A DNA stretch of 31,825 nt, taken from the IMG/VR virus record IMGVR_UViG_3300020042_002633, positions 1 to 31,825 of that record. One strand, given 5' to 3'. Shown here piece after piece: positions 3,611-21,378 of the stretch. The translations under genes and the position numbers were made by a program. The notes beneath the pieces were generated by a model that saw only the letters and a list, made by a program, of their open reading frames with translations, did no database searches and was not told where the DNA came from. The stretch is from a virus. Taxonomy: Duplodnaviria > Caudoviricetes. The stretch's first letter is position 1. Each line of letters begins with the position of its first letter.

Positions 3611-3777
3611 ATCATCACCCGATACCAAATAAAGCCGAACGTGAAGCACATGACGGCGATGACGCCGATGACAACAGCTAGGGTAACGATCCCCTCCATG
3701 ACATCCCAAAACAAATCGCGCTCTTTCAGCCTGCAAATGCAAGTACGGCCTTGGTCGCAGTTGTTGTTACAGATCAT
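3607..3777 (-). CDS. Small membrane protein with N-terminal Cys cluster (56 aa)
   Basis: Below the ORF-track cutoff. Hand translation: MICNNCDQGRTCICRLKERDLFWDVMEGIVTLAVVIGVIAVMCFTFGFIWYRVMI. GGAGG SD and ATGA overlaps at both ends. Confidence 0.8.
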   Translation of the reverse strand: MICNNNCDQGRTCICRLKERDLFWDVMEGIVTLAVVIGVIAVMCFTFGFIWYRVMI

Positions 3778-4109
3778 TTCACACCTCCCAGCTTCTCAGC
3801 CTTCCTTCTAGCGTAGCTGGCGCGGGCGTACTCTCGCGTCTTGGCTTTCTTGAACTCTCCCATAGTCATAGTTGCAACTGGGTTGGGGTTCTGTGTGCAT
3901 AGTTCCTGCAGGCGAGTCTCCAAGGCTGAGAGCCAATGGGATTGCACCGCGAGCTTGTGTTTTAGTTCTGCGAGGCCAACAACTAAGTCGCTGTTACGGT
4001 TGACTTCAGAGCTGAGTAGGCGCTCCAGCTCGGCTATGCGCCCGTAAAAGTTCCATTTTGTTTTTTGTTTAAAAGGGCTCCAGTCCATTTCGTCTCCTTG
4101 TGAGTTCAT
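3774..4109 (-). CDS. Coiled-coil hypothetical protein with basic C-terminus; two possible starts (4109, 4088)
   Basis: Each start has an identical CACAAGGAGACGAAATG initiation region. Confidence 0.75.
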   Translation of the reverse strand: MNSQGDEMDWSPFKQKTKWNFYGRIAELERLLSSEVNRNSDLVVGLAELKHKLAVQSHWLSALETRLQELCTQNPNPVATMTMGEFKKAKTREYARASYARRKAEKLGGVK

Positions 4110-9376: not shown

Positions 9377-9647
9377 GCTACTAGACGCTGCGCGAGAGTT
9401 GCCCTGCCAACACTGTGGTATCCAAGACGGTACGGTAGTGGCTGCTCATAGCAATCAGATGCGCGATGGCAAGGGCCGCAGCCTTAAAGCGAATGATTAC
9501 AGGATTGCGTCACTCTGCTTTAAGTGCCACTCCGAACTAGACCAGGGAGCACAGATGAGTAAGGCCGAGCGTCTTGAGATGTGGGAGGAGGCACACCGCA
9601 GGACTATCGGCCAACTCTTTGAGAACGGAATCATTGGCGTTTTATAA
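9360..9647 (+). CDS. DUF1364/YbcO-like zinc-binding HNH-type nuclease
   Basis: PCQHCG...VVAAHSN...GKG...K.ND...LCFKCH..LD pattern. Confidence 0.8.
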   Translation: MYRNRKLLDAARELPCQHCGIQDGTVVAAHSNQMRDGKGRSLKANDYRIASLCFKCHSELDQGAQMSKAERLEMWEEAHRRTIGQLFENGIIGVL

Positions 9648-12600
9648 CGTCCCTGTTGAAGGCTTCCATTATTTCTTTGATGCGCTCATCCTTTCGTTTA
9701 ACTTGGGCGTCTGGTGAGTTCTTCTCTATCAGCGCCTTCTTCTCTTTCTTCAAGCGCGAAACTTCATTCTCGACATAGTTGGCTCGATGCCGTAACTGAG
9801 CTGCAGGGTTTTCTTTAATGTACTCAGCTACGCCTTTGCCTTTCATGTCCCTGATGATGTTCTCATGCCTAGACATCTCAATGACGTTATCGTAGAACTT
9901 ACCGGCGATAGCAGCTGGCGCATTGATATCGCCGTATACCTTTCCAACAACCGGCACTTGGTAAGCCTGGACATCCTCACCCACTATTTTTGACTTTGCA
10001 TACTCGTAAGTTTGGATGCCAAGCTTTCCAACGCCGCCAGTATATTGGGCTGTAATGTAGCTAAGCTGATCGGCTGTTGGGCTAACTAAGCCAATGTCTT
10101 TCTCTCCTCCACCAGTGATGTAGTTCAAGCCATAGGCAATTGCTTGACTCAAGCCATTAGCAGAATCCCGGCTCCGCATATAACCTGGGGTAGGTGAGAG
10201 CGCTATGGCTTCTTTGGAGATGGGACGACCAAATGCATCTTTGTTTTCTGCAACTGCAACAAATGGATCAACAGCAGTAGGTGCTAATGTTTGAGCAAAC
10301 GTGCTTGATCCAAGAGGGTTAAAAGCTGTAAATATTGCAGCGCCAACGTAGGTAACAGTCTTCTTAAGATCACGTTTACCTTTCATTGCGCCAGATTGAA
10401 CCATCATGTACTCAGACACAACGCGCCCAATATTGGGAAATACATTTAATCCCAAAGGCATAGGAACCGCGATGTACTTCCCGTCCCCGGTAGGGAAGAT
10501 AAAGTTCTTAGACTTGATCCACTCAGGAGGTTCATCTGGCCCAAAACCAGCCATAGCCAAGAAAGCCGTTTGGGCTACACCAATCAACATGCCTCCAGCA
10601 ACAATCTTCTTGCCGGTAGGGCTCAAACGCATCTTGCCGTTTGCATCCTTGGTAAACAGGGTTTCAATCAACCTAGCTGTACCTTGAACGCTCGCGTTAA
10701 AGAAGGCATACAAAGCACCAATTGATGCAGTGTTTGCCCCTTTGCGGTTAAAGTTGACGGTAATGTTTTTGGCTAAGCTTGCAGCACGGTCTACACTTAA
10801 ACCCTCATCCAACGCGGCTTTGAATGCAGCCAGACGCACTGCGTTTTCTAGCGCATCGTTGTAGGCTGACAGTTGATCAAATACAAAGTACGCCCATTTT
10901 TTAGCAGTGCCACGGTCTAAAGTTCCAAGCTCGCGGGCAACAATTGTTTCTTTGCCTTTGCCTTTGCTGAATTGATCTCGGAATCCTGTTTGACCACCAG
11001 CCTGCTGGAATTGCTCAAACAAATCCATCCACCCTTGCATCTCTGGGCTAGTTGCACTTTTACCATTCAACGCCCGGAAAATTGTTCTAGGAACAAGGCC
11101 AGCTTTCTTTGTGGCATCGTTGACAACTTGGAGCTTACGGTCAGCAATAGGTGTGCTGGACAAGTTGATTGCAGCACCCTGTATGTCACGCACAAAGTTG
11201 AATGCGCCAAACACTGGGTTGTACTGCGTACTTGCAGCCGCAATGAATCGAGTTACTTCAGCCACAGTGCTAAGAGCTTCATCCATTTGCTGGACATCAA
11301 GGTTCTTCAGCGACTCCACCATGCGCTTGGCATTTGGGTTGCCTGGGTTAAAGAACACAAAGCGGTCTTCACCATTGATACGGACAGGGAATACGTTAGC
11401 CGAGTTACGCAGCGCAGCATTCACCTCGTACTTCACCAGACCCGTTGTCTTATCAATCCGGCCAGTCTTTGGCTCTTGGATGATGTTATTGGCATCAGTT
11501 GGAGATATCCCTAGGCCAATCAATTCAGCAACAAGCTTCTTCTTGTTTTTGATAGCGTCAGGATTGATAGCCATCCAGAAGTTGGGATTGGGGTTTGTAA
11601 TAGCCAGAGCGTATATAGCACGGCCAACGCGGGCTTTCTCTGCTCGCACAATGGCACGCTCACGCTGGAGAGCGATGTTGCCAAAGATATCGGTAACAGT
11701 CTTAAGAGAGCCTATTGCCAGTTTTCCAGATGGCCCTTTAACAGCAAACCCTTGGCCCATACCACTTGTCGCATTGACATAGTCGAGCTCATCAGGATCC
11801 CGATTAAGAGGAACATAGAACGGTAGGTTCTTGCGCCAGCCATCAATGGTTTCTTGTTTATCAAGGCCAGAAGAAACCAGCAACTCTTGGGTTTCTTTAA
11901 CAAACTTATCAGCCGTTTTTGCAAGTTCGTCGTACTTATCCTTAGTTTCTTTACTCAGCGACTTCATGTAGTCGCGTGCTTCTTGCGTAAAGATACCAGA
12001 GCCACCGTCAGGCATTTCAGGGTTGCGTAGAGCAATGAACTCGTTGCGGGTTTCCGCGTGTCGGTTGTGCAAGTACTCTTCAAAGTCTTGCAACTTAACG
12101 CCCATGTCAACCATCTTTTTAAGGAAAGGACGCAGCTCGTTCTTCAAGAAATCTGTAGTCTGCTTAGCAGTCCTGCCGTGGAACAACTCTTCTTGCAGGT
12201 AAGGATCCCAGGCATCTTCAATACGGCCTACTTCATTGGTGATGGCCTCTACGACACGCTTGGTATCAACGTGCTTATCTTGCAGGCGGTAGAGCCAGTA
12301 ATCTATTTTGGACTCACTGGCTGCTTGCCATGTAGCTAACGGTGCTGCCCCACCTTTGTAGTTACGGCGCACGTTCTGGTTCAGCAGCGAGAAGCTTTCT
12401 TGAAGAACGTAGTCATTCAATACTTTGTTTGTATTCCTGTCGGTGGTTCCATTCATCACTTGGCTAAAAGCTTTGTGGATAGCCGACTGGTTATCAAACC
12501 CAAACATATCTTTCAAGGCTTCTAAAAGCCCCTTAGCGGACAGCACAAAGCGATCCCAGCCAGAGCCAAGCTTGCGGGCCATCAGCTTCTCTGCGTTGAC

Positions 12601-15600
12601 TGCCCAGTACTCGGAAGGGTTTAGGTACTGGTAGTAGGAATAGTTTGGTAGCAGGCGAATAGCTCGCTTGAAACTTTCTTCATTTGGATCTTCAAAGAAG
12701 TCCAGTACGGCGCGGAAGTATCCTTGAGCCTTGAGAGATTTTTCTTTCTTGATGGCTGCGCTTAGCTTTTCTTTCCAATCCTTAACGATGGATTGAGCGG
12801 CTTCAGGACTCATCATCTGCTCAAGAGAGTGGGTTATCTCATGGCGGATAGTTACTGGGTCAGAGGTTCCAACTGTACCTTTGTACAAACGCACAATGCG
12901 AGGCAGAGCAAAGAACTGTCCTGATGCACCAGGGTTATCTGCATTCATGCGAACAGAAAACTGCAGCCCCTCAAGCACCTTTGGATGGCGCTGGTACAAG
13001 GTTTGGATGGCCGAGTAAACGTCATCATTGATCTCACTCGCATCCCAAGCCTTGGTTGCATCAGCAAAGAAGTTCTTAGCACTACGGCGCTCTGGCTTGG
13101 TAGCTTTAATCAGGGCACTCAGTTCATCAGCCGTCTTATTGAGAGAGCTAATGGCTTCTTGCTCGTTAAGGCCAGCTTCACCCTTGGCAAACTTGTTAAT
13201 TAAGCCAGTACGCTTTTGACGCAAGCTTTGGAATTGCCGGATCAACTCTGCCCGATCCATAAACCGGTTCTCATCTAGGTTCAAGCGCTGGCTAATTGGC
13301 CCATCATTAATATTAACCATCGGAGGAGTGAATGGCTTGGGAGCAAACAACTTCCTGGCTTCTTCTTTGTTGTTGGCTGCTATTAGCGTGACGCCTTTGT
13401 CTACCAACAGATATTGAACCGCACGCTCCATATCGCCCGAGCCGACATAGGTAACTTTCATTACAGAGCCAGCTTGGTAAAAGTCTCCAATAATGCGGGT
13501 TAGACCTTTATCAAGGAAATAATTACCGCCTAATTTCTTGGAGCTTGCAGTAAAAAAGTCGTAAGCATTGCCTCGTTTAACAATGCGTAAGTTGCTGTCT
13601 TCTGTAATAACAGTGCCATTCCCAAAACTTTCAAAGAAGTTGGTTGCATCATTAACGCTCTTAAGCTTGACCGGTGCGTCCTTCTTGGTCTTCTCAAAGT
13701 CAAAGGTACGCGGCATCAAGATACCTTGGCCTGTAGTTCCATCGTCTTTGGTATAGGACATGATCTGCCCCATGTTGTTGACGGCAGCGTAGCCAGCTAA
13801 GATGTTTCCTGTCACCATCCAGCGCTTCTCACGGCGAACGGTGGCGCCTTTGTCAAATAGATCCATCAGTTGGATGTACTCGCCCTTAACTGTTTCAGGG
13901 TTGAGCCAGTTGATTTCATTTTCCCGCTTGAGGGTATAGGAGCTACCAATCTGAGAAAAGGACAGAGTTATAGTCTTAGCGTCACCATTAGCCAAGGCAA
14001 TCTGCATCTTCCAGTCAGAGCCCGCTACTGGGTTCTTGGTCTTCTTGCTGTTGGTAATGTTGGTGATAGCACCATAGATAAACACGCCGTTGGTGTTCTT
14101 GATTGAGATGCCAGACCCAATGGGGAATGCCTCTATAACAGACCGGACATGGCTGGCCTGAGCGCTGATCTGGCTGTTGATAGTGTCAGCTTTAACAGTG
14201 TCTTCACCAATAACGGCTCCAACGCGCTCGTCAATGTACTCGCGGACACGTTCATTTAAACCTTGAAACAGGTTCTTGCCAAACTCGCTAACTGTCTTAC
14301 CGTCCAGGTTGTCTTTGACCTGCTCTTTTACTTCGTTTTGAGAGAACGGCTTAACAGTACGCTTAACGTCGACCTTTTCCATGTAGGCAGGCTTACCAAA
14401 GTCTGACTGAGTACCCTTGTCTTCAGTGATGGCCTCAGAAGACATGGTAAAGGCATCAAGATCAGAAGCTTTGGATTCCAGCTTGTTAGTTCCCATGCTT
14501 TCCTCGCGGGCAACCAACTCGTTGTAACGCTCAATCAGGTCTTTGTAAACCTCTTCCTGCTGCTTGATAGGCAAGATAGGGATGTAACCCGTCAAGCGGC
14601 GAATATCGTTTTCAGTGGCTTCTGTTGGGTCATCCATCAACTCAACGATCCGCTTGCCGCCAATGTCTTCATAAACCTCTGGGTTGTCGCGCAAGTATTC
14701 TTGAGCCACTTGACCACCGTAGTCATTCATAAAGTCAACTGCGCCTTCAGCAGATACAGCCGATTTACGAGAGCCGGTAGTGTTGGCGTTCAAGGATGCC
14801 ATCTTCTTCAACAGGACGGCAGCAGGGCGCATCTCGGCAGGGATGTCAGCCATCATCTGCGAGTAAGCGGGCGGCATGACTTGACCAGTGCGGTGAACAC
14901 GGCCCAGCATCTGCATGTGTGTGTCAATGTTCTTCTCTGGCTGAACAATGATCATGTGACGCTTGCGCTGATCTTTTACCTTGTTGGAAGCATGGAGCGA
15001 CAGACCAGTAGAACCAGCTTGGTTTAGGATGATTACATCAACTGTGCCTTTGTTAAAGTTCTTTACCGCATTAACACGTTGCTTAATGTTGGCAGAGCGA
15101 GAGGTCAACAATGGCTTACCGCTTGAGTAATTCAACGTCAGGGTGCGGCCAGTAATTTCTTCTGTTTTGTAACCAGCTTTATTCAACTCGTTGTGAAGGT
15201 AATCAATGGGAGAGATGGGGGCCGAACCAAATCCAGCTTCATCAATAAACTCTTGGATTGCATTGAACTGTTCAGTCAAAGTTTTACCAAGATCGTCATC
15301 TGTCAGGCGGTACTCTTCTGCTACACCGCCCGGCTTCTTGATCTTAATGATGCGCTGTTTTTCCAGGTAGCGTTGGTACAGGTCTGCAAACGAAAGATTT
15401 ACTGGATCACCAGTTGCAATGCCCATTTCTTCTGCGTAACTCTGCAGAAATGATCCCATCGTGTTAGAGACGGTCATCACTACTTTTTCACCAGCCTTCA
15501 GCCGTTCAATAGCATGATTAACTGAGTTTTGTACCTTAAGAGATAACAGCATCTGGTCAATCAAGTTATGCATGATTGAGCCAAAGTTGGCGGATTGAAG

Positions 15601-18600
15601 TTGAGTCTTCTCACCGCCTTCACTGGTTTTAGCACCCTGCTTATCAAGATCCTTTTGAAGGCTCTTGACAACTTCCTCTTTAGCGCGAGAGAAAGCCAGA
15701 ATCATCCGCATGGACGATGCCATATTTTCAGCAGTTTCTTTGTCTACTTTGGTTTCCACTGTGTCATAAGACACTCCGGCAAAGGTACGTTCCCGGCGGA
15801 TGTACTGTCCCACCTTAGCAAGCATAGTTGCCACAGTCTGCTGCATGGGGATACCGCCATTCTTGATGGCATCAGAAAGGTCAGCTAACTTATCCACAGC
15901 CAGCTTCATGTCTGTGCTGGAGTACAAGTCCATCACATCGGGGCGCTTTGCGTAAGTGGCAGAAGAGAAGAAAGTGCCGTAAGCATTTTGGACTAAATTG
16001 CGTACAAAGGCAGCGCGTCCTTGAGCTAAACCTTTACCTTCTTTTTCTTTCTCACGCTGTTCTTTTGTACGAGCCTGGGTTTCGCCAGCGCCACCAGCAT
16101 TGTGGCTCTCGTCAAAGATCATGTAGTTGCCAGCACCAAACTGTTTGATAAAGTTTTGGCGCTCAGTTGTTTTACCTCTGACGGTTTGCAATTGGCTGTA
16201 GGTGGTAAAGATGACCTTAAAGTCCCCAAGATCTTCGTTTTCCTGCATCTCCCGCATCATTCCATCTAGCTTAGCGCCAGACTTGGGAGCTTTAAGGGTT
16301 AAATTGTTTTCAGTAATTTCCCCGTTGACCGTACGCAACAGTGTGTACGGAATGGATTCAGTACCATTGGTAATAAAGATCTTAGGTTTGGCTGTATCAA
16401 GGCCAAGCTCATCAGTCATGCCGATATCATCCAAGTCACGGATCATGTCCGAGTATAGGTTAGGCTTCTCTGTAACAAAGATTGGGATCTTGTCGTTGAT
16501 TAGGGCGTACTTAATCATGGCTGCAACAACGCGGCCTTTACCTACGCCGGTCTGGTCGCCAATGATGAAGCCCTTGCCTTCTTGGGCATTGCGGATAGCT
16601 AAAACCAAAGCATCAACTTGCTCAGCGGAAAAGTTCTCACGCAGGGTTTCTGGATCCATCTCCAAAGACTCAGCCACAAATTCATCTACATTGCCTACTT
16701 GGCTTTCAATACGGTCTATGGAGTCTTGTATAGACTGAGCCATAGCTCTTGGTGCAAGTGTGCCGACAGCCGTAGCGTTTGACTTTGGCGTGTAAGTAAC
16801 TTGAGAAGAAGTTTCCTCCTCTTCCCCAGCACGCGCCTTTAATCCAGATTCGACTCGTTCACCTGAGACAATGCTAACTCCACCCACTCCTCCAGGTTGA
16901 CCTCCTTCATCGCCTCTTTCGCCGGTTGGCTTTCCTCGTCCACCTTCACTGGGAACTGGTCTTTGATTTGTACCGAGTTCAGATACGTCAGCAGGTTTAG
17001 GTTTTCCTTCACCAGTGCGTTCCCCGCCTGGTTTGCGTTGTCCACTGGAGGTAGATCCATCCTCTGACACGCCTGATTTGCCATCTCCAGCGGGTTTTCC
17101 TCCTGCAGTACTAGGTTCATCACCCTGTCGCTTAGTGCCTCCACCCACTGTCCCTGGCTTAGTTCCCCCTTCGGTACTAACACTGCCGTCAACTCCGGTG
17201 GCGCTACCATCTCCGCTGGATACCATGCGATCATTTAGTTTCTCCTTCAGTTGTTCGTAAGATGTAAAGACTTGAGGCAGGTTTGAAGCAGGAAGATCCC
17301 GCTGAGATTTACCCCAGCCATTAATAACGATTACGTCTACAGGGTAAGTAGTTCCCTGTTTTGCATACAAGTTGCCACCCACGGTGAAATGGTCAACTAC
17401 GTTGTACATGTTGTACAGCTTGTAGTAGAAGTTACGCTTGGCATTGCCACGGTATCCTTCTCGCCGTCCTTCATCCGTATTGGATTGAACGCCGCCTAGG
17501 ATAAGTACAGCACGGCCATCTTCTTTAAGTGCGATTAAAGATGCAGATGCAATGTCGTGATCAATGTTGCTGATATCCCCAACTTTGCCAAAGGGAGGGT
17601 TCTCAATGACAACATCAAATGAGTTGTTCTCAACTTCATTGTTAAGCGCATTACCTTCAGTAACAGTACCGCCTTCCAAAATGCGCTGAAGCATCTGGAA
17701 GCGATCAGCATTCAACTCATTGGCTGTAACCTTGTTAGCGTTGGCGCCAATCGTCAGCATACCGTTGCCACCAGTTGGTTCGTACACCGTCGTTTTACCG
17801 GTGATGCCAGCCAGCTCAGAGGCTACATAAGCCAAAGGTGAAGGCGTGGAATAGGCTTGGTTAGCTACGCTCGTAGAAGAACGCACAGACAGGTTTGGCT
17901 GGCGTCCATATAGGTCTACCAGCTTGTCGTAGATCTGGCCGCTATTAAGGCCATCCTTGCGCCCCTGCTCGATAATGTTGCGCGAGGCAAGGACTACGCC
18001 TACCTCGATAGCTTCGTCGGCTTGTTTGGCTGACTCTGTACCTGCCTCAATCTTCTGGCCGGTCATCTCTGCAATGGCTTTACGTGCCTCAACAATGTTG
18101 ATAAAAGCTTTGCCACTGCCAAAGAGGTCTGCTATCTTTTGAGCAACAGCAAACTTGCCATCGGGCGTAGATAGATCGGCTTGTACGGTAGCTTCCGTAG
18201 GAGCGTTAACTTCGTACTTCTCAACTACATCTGCAACGTCCATGTCTTGGACTAACGTCTCAGCGCGAGGGTCATAGCGTATAGCCATGTACCAGGATTT
18301 CAGGAACGGCTTAACACCATCACCCAGGTCATCAACCATTGCTTTGGCGTAAGCAGCGAATGTGCGTGCGCCCTTTTCAATGTGATAGCCAGCCAATGTA
18401 AGACCGGCCATCTGTATCTCAGGGTCAAAGCCACCGCTATACAGTTTTTTGCCAATCTTCTCACGCAGGATTTTGCGTGCTTTTTCAGCAGCATCTTCAG
18501 TAAAGATAGTGTTTTGACCTACTACCGGAGCAGATGGCGTTACTACCGGAGCGCCCAAAACTCCTTTCAAGAAATTGTTTGGTGATTGCTCTCGCTTGGT

Positions 18601-21378
18601 TTTAAGATCCTCGTTAACCATCGCACCAAGCTCTTGCTCAGCCTCTAAAAATTGATTAGCGTCAGCATTTTTGTACTCACGTTCTACCCGCTTGCGCGTA
18701 TTTGCATAACGTACAAATTGACCTCTCAATTCGCTATCGGCTTTTTTTAGATCTTGCAAAGCTTTTGGAAACCGGGAATCAATATTCTGCAGATTGATGC
18801 CCAAGTCCGCTGCTTGCTTGACGTAAGCATTGGATTGTTGGAGGACTGAGTTGGTAACTTCCGGGGAAACAGCTAAACCCGATTGATCTTCATATTTACC
18901 CTGGTACAAGTCAGCCAAAGTGCGATATACCGGGGCAATAGGAGGGTTTGTGCCCTTCTGGGCACCTTTAATTAATTGATCCTCTGCAATTATCCTGGGG
19001 CCGTACTCTTCCCAGAACTTTACATTTTCCTCATTAAAACCTTTGCTTGCCCCGTTTTCAACCATACGAGCGTTCTCATCCAAACCAGCATTTTTTAGCT
19101 GCTGAATGACTGCATCTACGCGTGGGCGTAATGGGTTTACTGAAGCTGCTGGCGCTTGTTGCGTAAGCTCATCCAACCGATTCTCTAGGAAGTCACGCTG
19201 AGCCATTGAGATGCTGGTATCACTCAACAAAGCTTTAGTGCGGGCAATTTCTTGCTCCGGTGTCTCCGCTAATTTTGGTGGCTTTACTGTGGCTGGAGGC
19301 GTTGCCGGGGCTGGAGGTTTAGGCAACACTTGCTCTATAAGCTGTGTAGACGGAACTTGCGCGTCTGGGGCTGCGGGCGCTTGTTTGCCAATAACAATGT
19401 ATTCTGGCCCATTGGTCGTTGTAAATATCACGCCGTCGTGACCAGCATCGCGTGCGGCATTCACCAAATCAGGCATAGTTGCTGACTGCGGAAGACCAAG
19501 TTTTTTCTTAGCGTCTACCCACGTTTGGGTTTGCAATGGATTGCTAAATGAATGAATTTCTTCTGATACCGTGCCATTTGTCCCTGCGTAATCTGCCGCA
19601 ACTTTTTTATTGGGCGACATAAACAATGCGCCACCTACAGTATCACGCCCCTCTTGGCCTTGGGGAACTCCTCTATAAAGCGTTACGCCGGTTGTGGGCG
19701 CTTGTTGTTCTTGCGGCGCTGCTTGCTGGGCTTGAGGGGCTTCATTGACACTAGGGACTCCTTGAGGTGAAACAATCTTTGGCTCGTCAACTAAGACAGG
19801 TGTCGTAGATGGAACTGCGACAGGTGTCTTAGTTAGAGTTGGTTTTCCAAGAATAGCATTTGCCTCATCTAGCAATGCTTGTTGGTCTTGCGATGCAATA
19901 GTTGCGTTTGCCTCATCAATCAATGCCTGTTGGTCTTGCGTTTGAATTGCAGGGGTGACTGGAGGTGCGAGCGAGGCTATGCCTCCTGCTGGCTCTGCTG
20001 CAAGAGAGATAGGAGGGATTGGCGTAGTAAGTGCAGCTATACCAGCAGGAGCGGGTGGAGTAGGTGCATTTGGATCTTGGGCAATTGCCTGCTCACCAGG
20101 TTCTATGTTGCGATTAGTACCAGCTTGGAATCCGCGATCTGGCTGCATAGCACGGATTGCTTGCTGGTTACCAACATTTGTATTTATGCTGCTACCCTTA
20201 ACTGATTCATTCATCAGGTCGGCAAATACCCGAGCGCGCTGTTCTTGTGGTGTTTCATTAACACGCACGCCGCTCACTGCTCCAGGGCCTACACCACCCA
20301 ACGCTCCAAGAATAAGGTTGGCGGCAGAGTCTTCGCCAATTTCTTTGGTAGGCAAGACGCTGGCAATGCCAATATCTGAAGCAACACCCTCAGCCGTTTC
20401 TTGTGCAGCTTGCTCCCCAGCGCTAATAGCTCCACCAGCAACAGTTCTTCCAAGCCCAGTTTTAGCAACTTTTTTTAGGGTGTTGTTAAAGGCACCAGTG
20501 ACTAAGCTACCGGTAAACCTATCGCCAAACGTAGCAACCAAGCCTTGCAACACCGCTCCAGACTCAGCAGCTTTTTTGATTGTTAACTCTCGCGCCTCTT
20601 TGGGTGTAGCGCCTCCAGCAACCATCTGTGCATAAAATGGGCTTTGCTCAAGCAGCTGCTTATTAGATAGCTTGCCAAACTCTTCTGCCGCATTTTGCCC
20701 AGCTTCGCTGGATGCCATAGAGCCGCCAACAAGTCCACCAGCGGTAGGGCTTTTTGTTATTATTGCCGTAGCAATAACAGGAACCATTGATCCAAATACG
20801 TTTGCTACTTGTAGCGCATAACCCATTGCAGTTGGGTTCTTTCCAAATTCCACTTCACCTTTAAAGATGTTGCCAGTAATTTTGGATTCTTCTAAAGCTT
20901 GCTTACCCCTATCGGACAAACTTTCATAAATACTTTTTTGTACGTTGCTTCCAATATCCGCAAGATACTTTGTACCAGGGATAGATGGCATAGCAGCAAC
21001 TGTGCGTTGAGCGCCAAGTTTTCTGCGTGCTTTTTGGGCATCAGTTTCAGGGCCAAACAATGCTTCTTCTGTATCAACTCCAGGCGAATACACTGAAGCA
21101 GGCATAACTGCACTTGGCTCACCTTCTAACGACTGGCGAGCTAATCCCTTAGCAGCAAGCTCAGCCCCATAAGGAGCTTGAAGAACACCAGAAATTGCTG
21201 GAGATACTGTTTGCTTCAGTAGATCAAGTATTCCAGAGCCAATGGTATACGGCGCTTGTTCTGGCGGTTGTGGTGGAAGCTTAAAAGGATTATCTATTAA
21301 CTCAAAACCTTCTGGTAAATTTGTTTCTTTCTTATCAAACGGAGACGCAATAATTTCAAATCCAGATGGTAATGCCAT
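9631..21378 (-). CDS. Large polyvalent virion protein (DarB-like): ART-like, N6-adenine MTase, strawberry-notch SF2 helicase, HExxH metallopeptidase, LPD38-like
   Basis: TLYRG/FMSP/NPL/GHDGVI/EYIV (about 19390-19685); YSTP, EPTGGNG, NPPFG (about 17300-17880); GDQTGVGKG, DESH, SAT, GSTGLSLHA, QMLGRVHRTGQ (about 14870-16600); HEITH...EYWA (about 12600-12850); NKDAFGRPI and YTGGVG near the C-terminus. Confidence 0.9.
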   Translation of the reverse strand: MALPSGFEIIASPFDKKETNLPEGFELIDNPFKLPPQPPEQAPYTIGSGILDLLKQTVSPAISGVLQAPYGAELAAKGLARQSLEGEPSAVMPASVYSPGVDTEEALFGPETDAQKARRKLGAQRTVAAMPSIPGTKYLADIGSNVQKSIYESLSDRGKQALEESKITGNIFKGEVEFGKNPTAMGYALQVANVFGSMVPVIATAIITKSPTAGGLVGGSMASSEAGQNAAEEFGKLSNKQLLEQSPFYAQMVAGGATPKEARELTIKKAAESGAVLQGLVATFGDRFTGSLVTGAFNNTLKKVAKTGLGRTVAGGAISAGEQAAQETAEGVASDIGIASVLPTKEIGEDSAANLILGALGGVGPGAVSGVRVNETPQEQRARVFADLMNESVKGSSINTNVGNQQAIRAMQPDRGFQAGTNRNIEPGEQAIAQDPNAPTPPAPAGIAALTTPIPPISLAAEPAGGIASLAPPVTPAIQTQDQQALIDEANATIASQDQQALLDEANAILGKPTLTKTPVAVPSTTPVLVDEPKIVSPQGVPSVNEAPQAQQAAPQEQQAPTTGVTLYRGVPQGQEGRDTVGGALFMSPNKKVAADYAGTNGTVSEEIHSFSNPLQTQTWVDAKKKLGLPQSATMPDLVNAARDAGHDGVIFTTTNGPEYIVIGKQAPAAPDAQVPSTQLIEQVLPKPPAPATPPATVKPPKLAETPEQEIARTKALLSDTSISMAQRDFLENRLDELTQQAPAASVNPLRPRVDAVIQQLKNAGLDENARMVENGASKGFNEENVKFWEEYGPRIIAEDQLIKGAQKGTNPPIAPVYRTLADLYQGKYEDQSGLAVSPEVTNSVLQQSNAYVKQAADLGINLQNIDSRFPKALQDLKKADSELRGQFVRYANTRKRVEREYKNADANQFLEAEQELGAMVNEDLKTKREQSPNNFLKGVLGAPVVTPSAPVVGQNTIFTEDAAEKARKILREKIGKKLYSGGFDPEIQMAGLTLAGYHIEKGARTFAAYAKAMVDDLGDGVKPFLKSWYMAIRYDPRAETLVQDMDVADVVEKYEVNAPTEATVQADLSTPDGKFAVAQKIADLFGSGKAFINIVEARKAIAEMTGQKIEAGTESAKQADEAIEVGVVLASRNIIEQGRKDGLNSGQIYDKLVDLYGRQPNLSVRSSTSVANQAYSTPSPLAYVASELAGITGKTTVYEPTGGNGMLTIGANANKVTANELNADRFQMLQRILEGGTVTEGNALNNEVENNSFDVVIENPPFGKVGDISNIDHDIASASLIALKEDGRAVLILGGVQSNTDEGRREGYRGNAKRNFYYKLYNMYNVVDHFTVGGNLYAKQGTTYPVDVIVINGWGKSQRDLPASNLPQVFTSYEQLKEKLNDRMVSSGDGSATGVDGSVSTEGGTKPGTVGGGTKRQGDEPSTAGGKPAGDGKSGVSEDGSTSSGQRKPGGERTGEGKPKPADVSELGTNQRPVPSEGGRGKPTGERGDEGGQPGGVGGVSIVSGERVESGLKARAGEEEETSSQVTYTPKSNATAVGTLAPRAMAQSIQDSIDRIESQVGNVDEFVAESLEMDPETLRENFSAEQVDALVLAIRNAQEGKGFIIGDQTGVGKGRVVAAMIKYALINDKIPIFVTEKPNLYSDMIRDLDDIGMTDELGLDTAKPKIFITNGTESIPYTLLRTVNGEITENNLTLKAPKSGAKLDGMMREMQENEDLGDFKVIFTTYSQLQTVRGKTTERQNFIKQFGAGNYMIFDESHNAGGAGETQARTKEQREKEKEGKGLAQGRAAFVRNLVQNAYGTFFSSATYAKRPDVMDLYSSTDMKLAVDKLADLSDAIKNGGIPMQQTVATMLAKVGQYIRRERTFAGVSYDTVETKVDKETAENMASSMRMILAFSRAKEEVVKSLQKDLDKQGAKTSEGGEKTQLQSANFGSIMHNLIDQMLLSLKVQNSVNHAIERLKAGEKVVMTVSNTMGSFLQSYAEEMGIATGDPVNLSFADLYQRYLEKQRIIKIKKPGGVAEEYRLTDDDLGKTLTEQFNAIQEFIDEAGFGSAPISPIDYLHNELNKAGYKTEEITGRTLTLNYSSGKPLLTSRSANIKQRVNAVKNFNKGTVDVIILNQAGSTGLSLHASNKVKDQRKRHMIIVQPEKNIDTHMQMLGRVHRTGQVMPPAYSQMMADIPAEMRPAAVLLKKMASLNANTTGSRKSAVSAEGAVDFMNDYGGQVAQEYLRDNPEVYEDIGGKRIVELMDDPTEATENDIRRLTGYIPILPIKQQEEVYKDLIERYNELVAREESMGTNKLESKASDLDAFTMSSEAITEDKGTQSDFGKPAYMEKVDVKRTVKPFSQNEVKEQVKDNLDGKTVSEFGKNLFQGLNERVREYIDERVGAVIGEDTVKADTINSQISAQASHVRSVIEAFPIGSGISIKNTNGVFIYGAITNITNSKKTKNPVAGSDWKMQIALANGDAKTITLSFSQIGSSYTLKRENEINWLNPETVKGEYIQLMDLFDKGATVRREKRWMVTGNILAGYAAVNNMGQIMSYTKDDGTTGQGILMPRTFDFEKTKKDAPVKLKSVNDATNFFESFGNGTVITEDSNLRIVKRGNAYDFFTASSKKLGGNYFLDKGLTRIIGDFYQAGSVMKVTYVGSGDMERAVQYLLVDKGVTLIAANNKEEARKLFAPKPFTPPMVNINDGPISQRLNLDENRFMDRAELIRQFQSLRQKRTGLINKFAKGEAGLNEQEAISSLNKTADELSALIKATKPERRSAKNFFADATKAWDASEINDDVYSAIQTLYQRHPKVLEGLQFSVRMNADNPGASGQFFALPRIVRLYKGTVGTSDPVTIRHEITHSLEQMMSPEAAQSIVKDWKEKLSAAIKKEKSLKAQGYFRAVLDFFEDPNEESFKRAIRLLPNYSYYQYLNPSEYWAVNAEKLMARKLGSGWDRFVLSAKGLLEALKDMFGFDNQSAIHKAFSQVMNGTTDRNTNKVLNDYVLQESFSLLNQNVRRNYKGGAAPLATWQAASESKIDYWLYRLQDKHVDTKRVVEAITNEVGRIEDAWDPYLQEELFHGRTAKQTTDFLKNELRPFLKKMVDMGVKLQDFEEYLHNRHAETRNEFIALRNPEMPDGGSGIFTQEARDYMKSLSKETKDKYDELAKTADKFVKETQELLVSSGLDKQETIDGWRKNLPFYVPLNRDPDELDYVNATSGMGQGFAVKGPSGKLAIGSLKTVTDIFGNIALQRERAIVRAEKARVGRAIYALAITNPNPNFWMAINPDAIKNKKKLVAELIGLGISPTDANNIIQEPKTGRIDKTTGLVKYEVNAALRNSANVFPVRINGEDRFVFFNPGNPNAKRMVESLKNLDVQQMDEALSTVAEVTRFIAAASTQYNPVFGAFNFVRDIQGAAINLSSTPIADRKLQVVNDATKKAGLVPRTIFRALNGKSATSPEMQGWMDLFEQFQQAGGQTGFRDQFSKGKGKETIVARELGTLDRGTAKKWAYFVFDQLSAYNDALENAVRLAAFKAALDEGLSVDRAASLAKNITVNFNRKGANTASIGALYAFFNASVQGTARLIETLFTKDANGKMRLSPTGKKIVAGGMLIGVAQTAFLAMAGFGPDEPPEWIKSKNFIFPTGDGKYIAVPMPLGLNVFPNIGRVVSEYMMVQSGAMKGKRDLKKTVTYVGAAIFTAFNPLGSSTFAQTLAPTAVDPFVAVAENKDAFGRPISKEAIALSPTPGYMRSRDSANGLSQAIAYGLNYITGGGEKDIGLVSPTADQLSYITAQYTGGVGKLGIQTYEYAKSKIVGEDVQAYQVPVVGKVYGDINAPAAIAGKFYDNVIEMSRHENIIRDMKGKGVAEYIKENPAAQLRHRANYVENEVSRLKKEKKALIEKNSPDAQVKRKDERIKEIMEAFNRDVIKRQ
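16839..17234 (-). CDS. Candidate nested (+1 frame) acidic protein, 131 aa
   Basis: AAGGAG-N7-ATG, globular composition, and an extent that coincides with the low-complexity linker between the MTase and helicase domains. Confidence 0.65.
   Translation of the reverse strand: MIAWYPAEMVAPPELTAVLVPKGELSQGQWVEALSDRVMNLVLQEENPLEMANQACQRMDLPPVDNANQAGNALVKENLNLLTYLNSVQIKDQFPVKVDEESQPAKEAMKEVNLEEWVELALSQVNESNLD
19683..19751 (-). CDS. Candidate nested (+1 frame) basic peptide MSMKPLKPSKQRRKNNKRPQPA
   Basis: AAGGAG (19763-19758)-N6-GTG, with an in-frame ATG at 19745. The stop falls at the start of the ART-like domain. Confidence 0.4.
   Translation of the reverse strand: MSMKPLKPSKQRRKNNKRPQPA
19789..19833. 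repeat. Two tandem copies of the 5002-5021 palindrome
   Basis: 19789-19808 matches 5001-5020 at 19/20, and 19810-19833 matches 4998-5021 at 22/24. Confidence 0.85.

Follow-up and report, generated by a model that had tools for sequence, protein, structure and literature searches.

Small acidic proteins of phages and plasmids, Ocr and ArdA among them, act as DNA mimics on HsdM-type methyltransferases (MTases). Genes hidden inside other genes are known from lambda Rz/Rz1, in which, according to the accessible part of the source, a small gene missed by gene callers lies wholly in the +1 frame of a larger one and encodes the binding partner of Rz, the two products forming a complex (PMC6139136). 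In phage methylases, a stop-free 'loop' of the methylase frame can hide an out-of-frame gene, whose product in ShiLan is an HNH homing nuclease (available text of PMC11855218). Phage P1 DarB is the archetype of the polyvalent MTase-helicase dyad (available text of PMC5512222), and the 17-kDa P1 protein Ulx, encoded next to darB, 'aids DarB localization' (available text of PMC9024508). An overlapping gene in a polyvalent-protein dyad goes unmentioned in the available text of PMC5512222, which uses 'nested' solely of a hairpin. We examined a putative small gene in the +1 frame of a DarB-like giant, at the linker between its MTase and its helicase.

The window, which is the whole 31,825-nt stretch analyzed, is a virus record that is about half complete. 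In it a giant gene, preceded by a virion structural gene and further large ORFs, has a DarB-like PHROG match and adenine MTase, AAA_34, Helicase_C_4 and LPD38 matches. As in other polyvalent MTase-helicase proteins, an NPP(Y/F) adenine MTase is fused to a SWI2/SNF2-related helicase, and the top folds for the MTase (7eew, 2okc, 3ufb, 7vru) are HsdM-like. The locus is laid out as follows:

9631..21378, minus strand: host gene, a polyvalent DarB-like protein of 3915 aa with N6-adenine MTase, strawberry-notch-like SF2 helicase and LPD38
17236..18126, minus strand: MTase region (giant residues 1085-1381, with NPPF at 1260), similar in fold to type I HsdM subunits
17242..17247, minus strand: Shine-Dalgarno (SD) AAGGAG, read in the giant's frame as Lys(AAG)-Glu(GAG), with 7 nt between it and the nested ATG
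17235..17237, minus strand: in-frame TAA that abuts the nested ATG upstream and closes the +1 frame from upstream
16839..17234, minus strand: nested +1-frame gene, 131 aa, ATG start, acidic, predicted alpha/beta fold
16807..17235, minus strand: Gly/Ser-rich linker, giant residues 1382-1524, of which 1385-1496 are predicted to be disordered
14389..16806, minus strand: strawberry-notch-like helicase, AAA_34 at giant residues 1581-1883 and Helicase_C_4 at 2072-2296
9946..10536, minus strand: LPD38 domain match, giant residues 3615-3811

A preliminary description had reported a same-strand ORF with AAGGAG-N7-ATG at 16839..17234 without giving the strand, and this is borne out on the minus strand, where AAGGAG spans 17247-17242 and the ATG begins at 17234. 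The ORF covers giant residues 1382-1514 at an offset of +1; nowhere else does the giant's +1 frame run so long without a stop (132 codons here, 81 in the next longest run). The earlier hand count of about 22 D/E, 8 K/R and three Trp in its product proved exact on recount, and the protein has a single Cys, at position 56. Over the same span the giant's own frame is indeed of low complexity, its 133 residues including 36 Gly and 16 Ser. Of the giant's 279 Lys, 150 are coded by AAG, and of its 267 Glu, 121 by GAG. No sigma-70 promoter or terminator was found within 16700-17900, and an internal promoter leaves no sign: of 70 conserved codons upstream, just 3 have a fixed synonymous choice. All four read runs consist of contigs, and the RNA run covers only two 151-nt pieces, both outside the ORF. 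In relatives from runs X1 and X2, one base is inserted and another deleted six bases away (window 16960-16966, inside the nested ORF); this pair may keep both frames open, or may be an effect of alignment.

We then asked how much of this could arise by chance. Stops in the +1 frame arise solely after L, I, V or M codons of the giant's frame, and the linker has no such codons. The +1 frame stays open in 10% of 500 random synonymous recodings of the window's linker, and recoding over 50 homologues leaves a median of 7.4% open, with 3.6 of 50 expected to be open by chance. The open +1 frame is therefore not beyond chance by itself, and the case for a gene rests on homologues.

A protein search returned 62 homologues of the nested protein among 283 candidates, at 36-85% identity and nearly all of 129-135 aa. 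At 70 of 74 loci fetched with the nested protein (duplicates included), the ORF is intact inside an open main frame; the other four comprise two cut by contig ends, L067 with a broken main frame, and L073 with an early stop in both frames. To avoid picking for the nested gene, loci were selected by the helicase only, and 47 were fetched, of which three without upstream DNA were left out. All 44 that remained (36 distinct) carry a +1 ATG ORF of 129-134 aa with the ATG at SD spacing, often with a stop directly before it, and AAGGAGAA is present at 43 of the 44. Further, an SD of 5 or more nt precedes the start at 90 of 126 loci, a slightly generous count in that the best of several starts per locus was accepted, against 2.6% of 2950 control +1 ATGs. 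The invariance of the SD at 50 of 50 loci is circular, these having been chosen by the SD motif, and we rely on the 43/44 and 90/126 counts.

A wider sample of 196 helicase-selected loci drew on viral contigs and bacterial genomes; it includes the best 80 of 284 and the best 80 of 519 matches, and so leans to the window's kin. After removal of 28 duplicates and of 14 loci without an MTase motif in the open frame, 154 were left, and 153 of these have a +1 ORF at the linker spot among the matches listed. An iterated HMM matched the +1 segment at 126 of the 154 and the +2 frame at none; 22, all BS-TP4 relatives, have a conserved +1 ORF of their own (103-144 aa), five have short +1 ORFs of ~90-100 aa from the MTase end, and only Acinetobacter L076 has none (all among the matches listed). 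Nested ORF length across types runs from about 90 to 230 aa. Named carriers include records from Cyanobacteriota, Pseudomonadota, Thermodesulfobacteriota, Bacillota, Planctomycetota and Bacteroidota, and the gene is single-copy in five of five complete phage genomes. MTase-to-helicase spacing is much longer, at ~485-555 codons, in L179, L188, L197, L200, L216 and L245, and L197 and L200 have a further domain after the nested gene. A tblastn search of GenBank phages with the nested protein and a single-sequence viral scan each gave no match.

Across 50 distinct loci, the nested frame has an amino-acid identity of 0.58 and the linker frame one of 0.45. When nucleotide identity is split by codon position of the giant, the linker gives 0.60/0.69/0.76, and the two flanks give 0.74/0.82/0.42 and 0.76/0.85/0.44. 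In 21 disjoint pairs, sites that are silent in the giant and alter the nested protein differ at 0.103, sites that alter both at 0.106, and nested-silent sites, which alter the giant only, at 0.248; for giant-silent sites the two flanks give 0.485 and 0.461. The Bacteroides-phage type has the same pattern (0.085 vs 0.278 in 8 pairs). From these site-class rates, a simple count and not a tree model, we conclude that the nested frame is under purifying selection and that the linker frame has no detectable purifying selection of its own on this test. The earlier proposal that selection acts on the nested frame and that the linker is its by-product thus agrees with both the substitution pattern and the predicted disorder of the linker; the checks it had named on homologous giant genes come out the same way, with a conserved SD (43/44) and an open +1 frame (44/44) at the helicase-selected loci and a pattern across the pairs that is specific to the nested frame. 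The conserved start, SD and stop and the substitution pattern exceed chance, unlike the open frame alone.

These data bear on two accounts in which the ORF is not a separate gene. That it is no gene at all, its open frame being an effect of the Gly/Ser-rich linker, draws on the ~7-10% chance of an open +1 frame per linker; given the frame-specific substitution pattern, the SD, the fixed start and stop and the confident predicted fold, we consider it exceedingly improbable. An SD could also stimulate ribosomal frameshifting, so that the nested frame would be decoded as the C-terminal domain of a short MTase product or the N-terminal domain of a helicase product, and fused forms do occur (P0061/L067 and three cyanobacterial loci with broken frames). 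However, these fused cases resemble single indels, all 44 close loci have the ATG at SD spacing, often right after a stop, and no slippery heptamer is conserved across 50 sequences (no site has one in more than 3 of them), which makes frameshift decoding very unlikely. The nested ORF is almost certainly a real, conserved protein-coding gene.

AlphaFold2 predicts a compact product of three short strands and six helices, with a pLDDT of 95 and a pTM of 0.89 from a 137-row alignment, whereas giant residues 1385-1496 have a pLDDT of about 28 between two confident domains; the description of the nested frame as a folded protein therefore fits the prediction. The protein has no match at E 0.01 in Pfam, PHROGs, NCBIfam or PADLOC, and its best E value in a PDB sequence search is 0.23; of 137 members of the family, 1 has a weak match to Pfam GAS. 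ESM Atlas yielded no usable match for it or for P0076, a fold search of PDB and BFVD gave 0 matches at E<=0.001, and the VIA fold search reached a best Z of 3.2, with several ORC/Cdc6 winged-helix rows at Z 2.0-2.9 that we do not trust. The absent matches do not prove a new fold; the predicted fold is one for which no match was found here. Conserved columns are W4, P6, V18, L34, R37, N78, P95, L114 and W117, the R37 column being K/R in 99%. The window also has, in a region of small genes, a 111-aa ORF (3774-4109, minus strand) with a 28-residue match to the family's signature helix (W..AL..R...L....NP); its HMM E value against the nested family is 2.7e-4 in the window's six frames, and hhalign gives 58%. 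No relatives of this ORF were found, nor a second match in the five complete phages, and the resemblance may be chance or a partial mimic.

Because the preliminary description had suggested a DNA mimic as one possible product, we considered the acidity of the family. Although 133 of 137 members are net acidic, the family's median is a mere -0.07 or so in net charge per residue, and D/E occupies no single column in more than 67% of the 137 homologues, so the mimic reading has little support. Counter-defence genes are usually patchy in distribution. The nested product could nonetheless be an independent counter-defence or host-binding protein, an Ocr/ArdA-like mimic included, that uses the linker only for co-expression. 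Its small size and acidity would suit this, as would the fusions of its domain and the captured copy described below; its modest, non-positional charge and its fixed place across phyla speak against it, and we regard it as unlikely.

Outside the giant, ~20 of 75 representatives are longer proteins that contain the nested domain, either at the N-terminus of a ~330-aa family (P0076, P0085, P0095, P0102, P0103, P0111, P0120, P0128, P0130, P0135) or at the C-terminus after T5orf172, ankyrin or membrane segments. A word-index search found no longer fused forms, the ~20 having come from the other search. The ~330-aa family has a conserved C-terminal domain without a Pfam match, which by eye we take to resemble YbjN/type III chaperone-like folds, and a viral scan for this family gave no match. 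In the 305-aa protein P0065 / P0140 the domain occurs twice in tandem, and each copy has a charge close to neutral. At L286:5443-6384 (G060:C57), a 313-aa fusion ends in the nested domain after a poly-D/E tract, and the MTase and helicase flanks are absent. Its -1 frame runs open over 150 codons and shares 33% identity with giant linkers (E 1e-15); because this old linker frame is still open and similar to giant linkers, the domain was evidently captured from a nested gene. On one side of the fusion is a PLD-SNF2 helicase (PADLOC 1e-126) and on the other a PD-T4-3-like GIY-YIG gene, with toprim-DUF3987 and integrase genes beside them, in a satellite-like, defence-like island; from this one locus we infer that it may serve defence. 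Another candidate, L285 (E 6e-5), among the 4/401 matches of an order-wide genome search, is a LacI-like gene and was rejected as chance. The nested gene had been called genetically inseparable from its target; with its domain in other proteins and at one locus without the giant, this does not hold strictly.

The gene also occurs beyond phages. Seven of 195 plasmid matches were opened, and Gloeobacter plasmid pGMOR1 carries it (E 2e-19; RefSeq hypothetical protein WP_230844304.1). The annotation of this Gloeobacter morelensis plasmid (L288:2399-2848) calls the nested gene, starts the helicase after it and splits the main frame, which is nevertheless open from the MTase through the helicase. 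A Thalassospira plasmid has a 128-codon +1 ORF without an HMM match. Because it is present on a cyanobacterial plasmid, the gene is not virion-specific, and the action 'during virion assembly' proposed earlier is too narrow for a gene that plasmid and many bacterial-genome versions carry. The expectation that standard annotation would miss it holds in part: it is unannotated in Bacteroides phage BS-TP4, and RefSeq calls it once, as the Gloeobacter hypothetical protein. In BS-TP4, a cultured phage (PQ571277), the ORF is a 119-aa +1 frame at the same linker (L075:3803-4162), with a start context, AAGACAAATG, that is conserved in most relatives. An hhalign comparison of this Bacteroides-phage type with the main family gave 0.1-0.5%, not above 40 column shuffles, and homology between the two is suggested by layout only.

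Some relatives, several conjugative-plasmid versions among them, lack the gene. It was not found in Paracoccus L290, Cupriavidus L291 or P. putida L292, which have MTase and helicase, nor in Bosea and Rhizobium plasmids, which have the helicase and no MTase visible upstream; no frame of P1 darB matches the nested family. In a quick helicase tree, six loci without the nested gene fall on one side of a branch (support 71). The main-frame linker of Acinetobacter MD-2021a L076 is strongly acidic, and those of Cupriavidus L291 and P. putida L292 are also D/E-rich; judging by composition, such linkers could be in-cis substitutes for the nested protein.

This distribution also bears on a selfish homing insertion like the out-of-frame HNH endonuclease that ShiLan carries in a phage methylase, a case of the same design, in which a methylase-frame loop hides an out-of-frame gene (available text of PMC11855218). 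However, nuclease Pfam families, HNH included, match 0 of 137 members, and the family's columns hold no conserved His/Cys and no invariant acidic catalytic set; the absence of a catalytic His/Cys set argues against a nuclease. No empty allele occurs inside the clade among 153 loci (among the matches listed), the loci without the gene being confined to their side of the branch. A homing origin is thus already largely refuted, and we hold it to be highly improbable.

A further alternative is that the nested protein is a required subunit, delivered with the giant, that completes or activates the enzyme as an MTase-helicase adaptor or a stand-in for an HsdM partner. It lies right after an HsdM-like MTase, where the giant's frame has only a disordered linker, it is retained near-universally in the clade, and its R37 column is almost invariably basic. 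Yet its net acidity is unlike that of a DNA-recognition domain, relatives without it show no folded replacement at that place, and both length (about 90 to 230 aa) and sequence vary, so that a required subunit seems improbable to us.

The best explanation, held tentatively and at somewhat less than an even chance, is that the nested product is a cognate chaperone or inhibitor subunit that would bind the MTase-helicase module of the same giant. Ribosomes on the giant's mRNA would also initiate at the internal SD, so that enzyme and partner would be co-produced at a constant ratio and would move as a single unit. The partner would keep the giant inactive or deliverable in the producing cell until the giant is packaged or transferred with the DNA and set free in the new host. 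The small gene would be the constrained and probably older frame, and the linker a read-through across it. Because the gene occurs in phage, plasmid and bacterial-genome versions, it is tied to the enzyme and not to the capsid. Its fixed position right after the MTase, across phyla and whatever the sequence type (153/154 among the matches listed), its single copy and the analogues Rz1 and Ulx speak indirectly for a partner role. Mutual-information coevolution over 86 paired rows was dominated by phylogeny and singled out neither MTase nor helicase. As counterpoints to the cognate partner, relatives with MTase and helicase work without the nested gene (P1 darB, L076, L290, L291, L292), the domain may have a function of its own, occurring as it does in ~20 longer proteins with unrelated partners, and the fixed position could reflect a linker that is the sole place tolerating a second frame. 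An extended form of the cognate-partner reading, more doubtful than the partner role itself, takes in the whole clade of phage and plasmid MTase-helicase giants. In this version the read-through that fused MTase and helicase would have engulfed an old small gene, whose fold is not yet in PDB; its product would now be the enzyme's off-switch, and bacteria would have taken its domain into defence islands as a means of sensing or blocking the injected giant.

How, then, does this locus compare with the described systems? As in lambda Rz/Rz1, a small gene is wholly embedded in the +1 frame of a larger one. The Rz1 product is a 40-aa Pro-rich lipoprotein (accessible part of PMC6139136), whereas the embedded 131-aa product here is predicted to be folded and is the constrained one, and its complex with the giant is only proposed. 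The outer frame is the disordered linker of a 3915-aa cytoplasmic enzyme, with no lipoprotein or lysis context; the host is an MTase-helicase and the guest has, by inspection, no signal peptide or lipobox, which sets the pair apart from spanins. The ShiLan insertion likewise has a stop-free methylase-frame loop over an out-of-frame gene, but its product is a homing nuclease (available text of PMC11855218), whereas the nested gene has no nuclease match or motif and is fixed between MTase and helicase, with neither an HNH product nor a patchy presence with empty alleles among close relatives. The window's giant shares the MTase-helicase dyad with P1 DarB, its helicase being of the strawberry-notch-like type, and it also has a phage-type LPD38. 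Ulx, a small protein from a gene beside darB (available text of PMC9024508), is the closest functional analogy, but it is a separate gene, hhalign gives 0.1%, and Ulx is near-neutral (24 D/E, 20 K/R). The giant's MTase folds like Ocr-bound MTases, yet the acidity of the nested family is weaker than that of Ocr/ArdA and non-positional, with no family match; Ocr/ArdA are not among the listed fold matches of the nested protein, an absence compatible with a likeness. In phage P1 (L273:26577-26975), iddB is annotated as a nested gene within ddrB, a further gene of the Dar system, on its opposite strand.

Like known embedded genes, the nested gene leaves both frames open in homologues (44/44; 153/154 among the matches listed), has its own start signal and, by the site-class count, is under purifying selection. 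The nested gene is undescribed in the literature we searched, which was largely open-access article text; embedded +1 genes are already known, and this family, its predicted fold and a linker-as-by-product in a DarB-like giant appear undescribed. Together, they point to a so far unrecognised part of the DarB-like anti-restriction giants, about whose mechanism little is known, and they offer a large natural dataset on the origin of overlapping genes. If the product is a cognate inhibitor or chaperone, it would explain how a DNA-modifying translocase stays harmless in the producing cell, and why a giant expressed without it might misbehave; a direct test is possible, in that one start codon can be removed with the enzyme domains untouched. 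Set beside the systems above, this is an unusually clean cross-phylum gene-in-gene, in which constraint falls on the hidden frame and the annotated one is carried along as a passenger.
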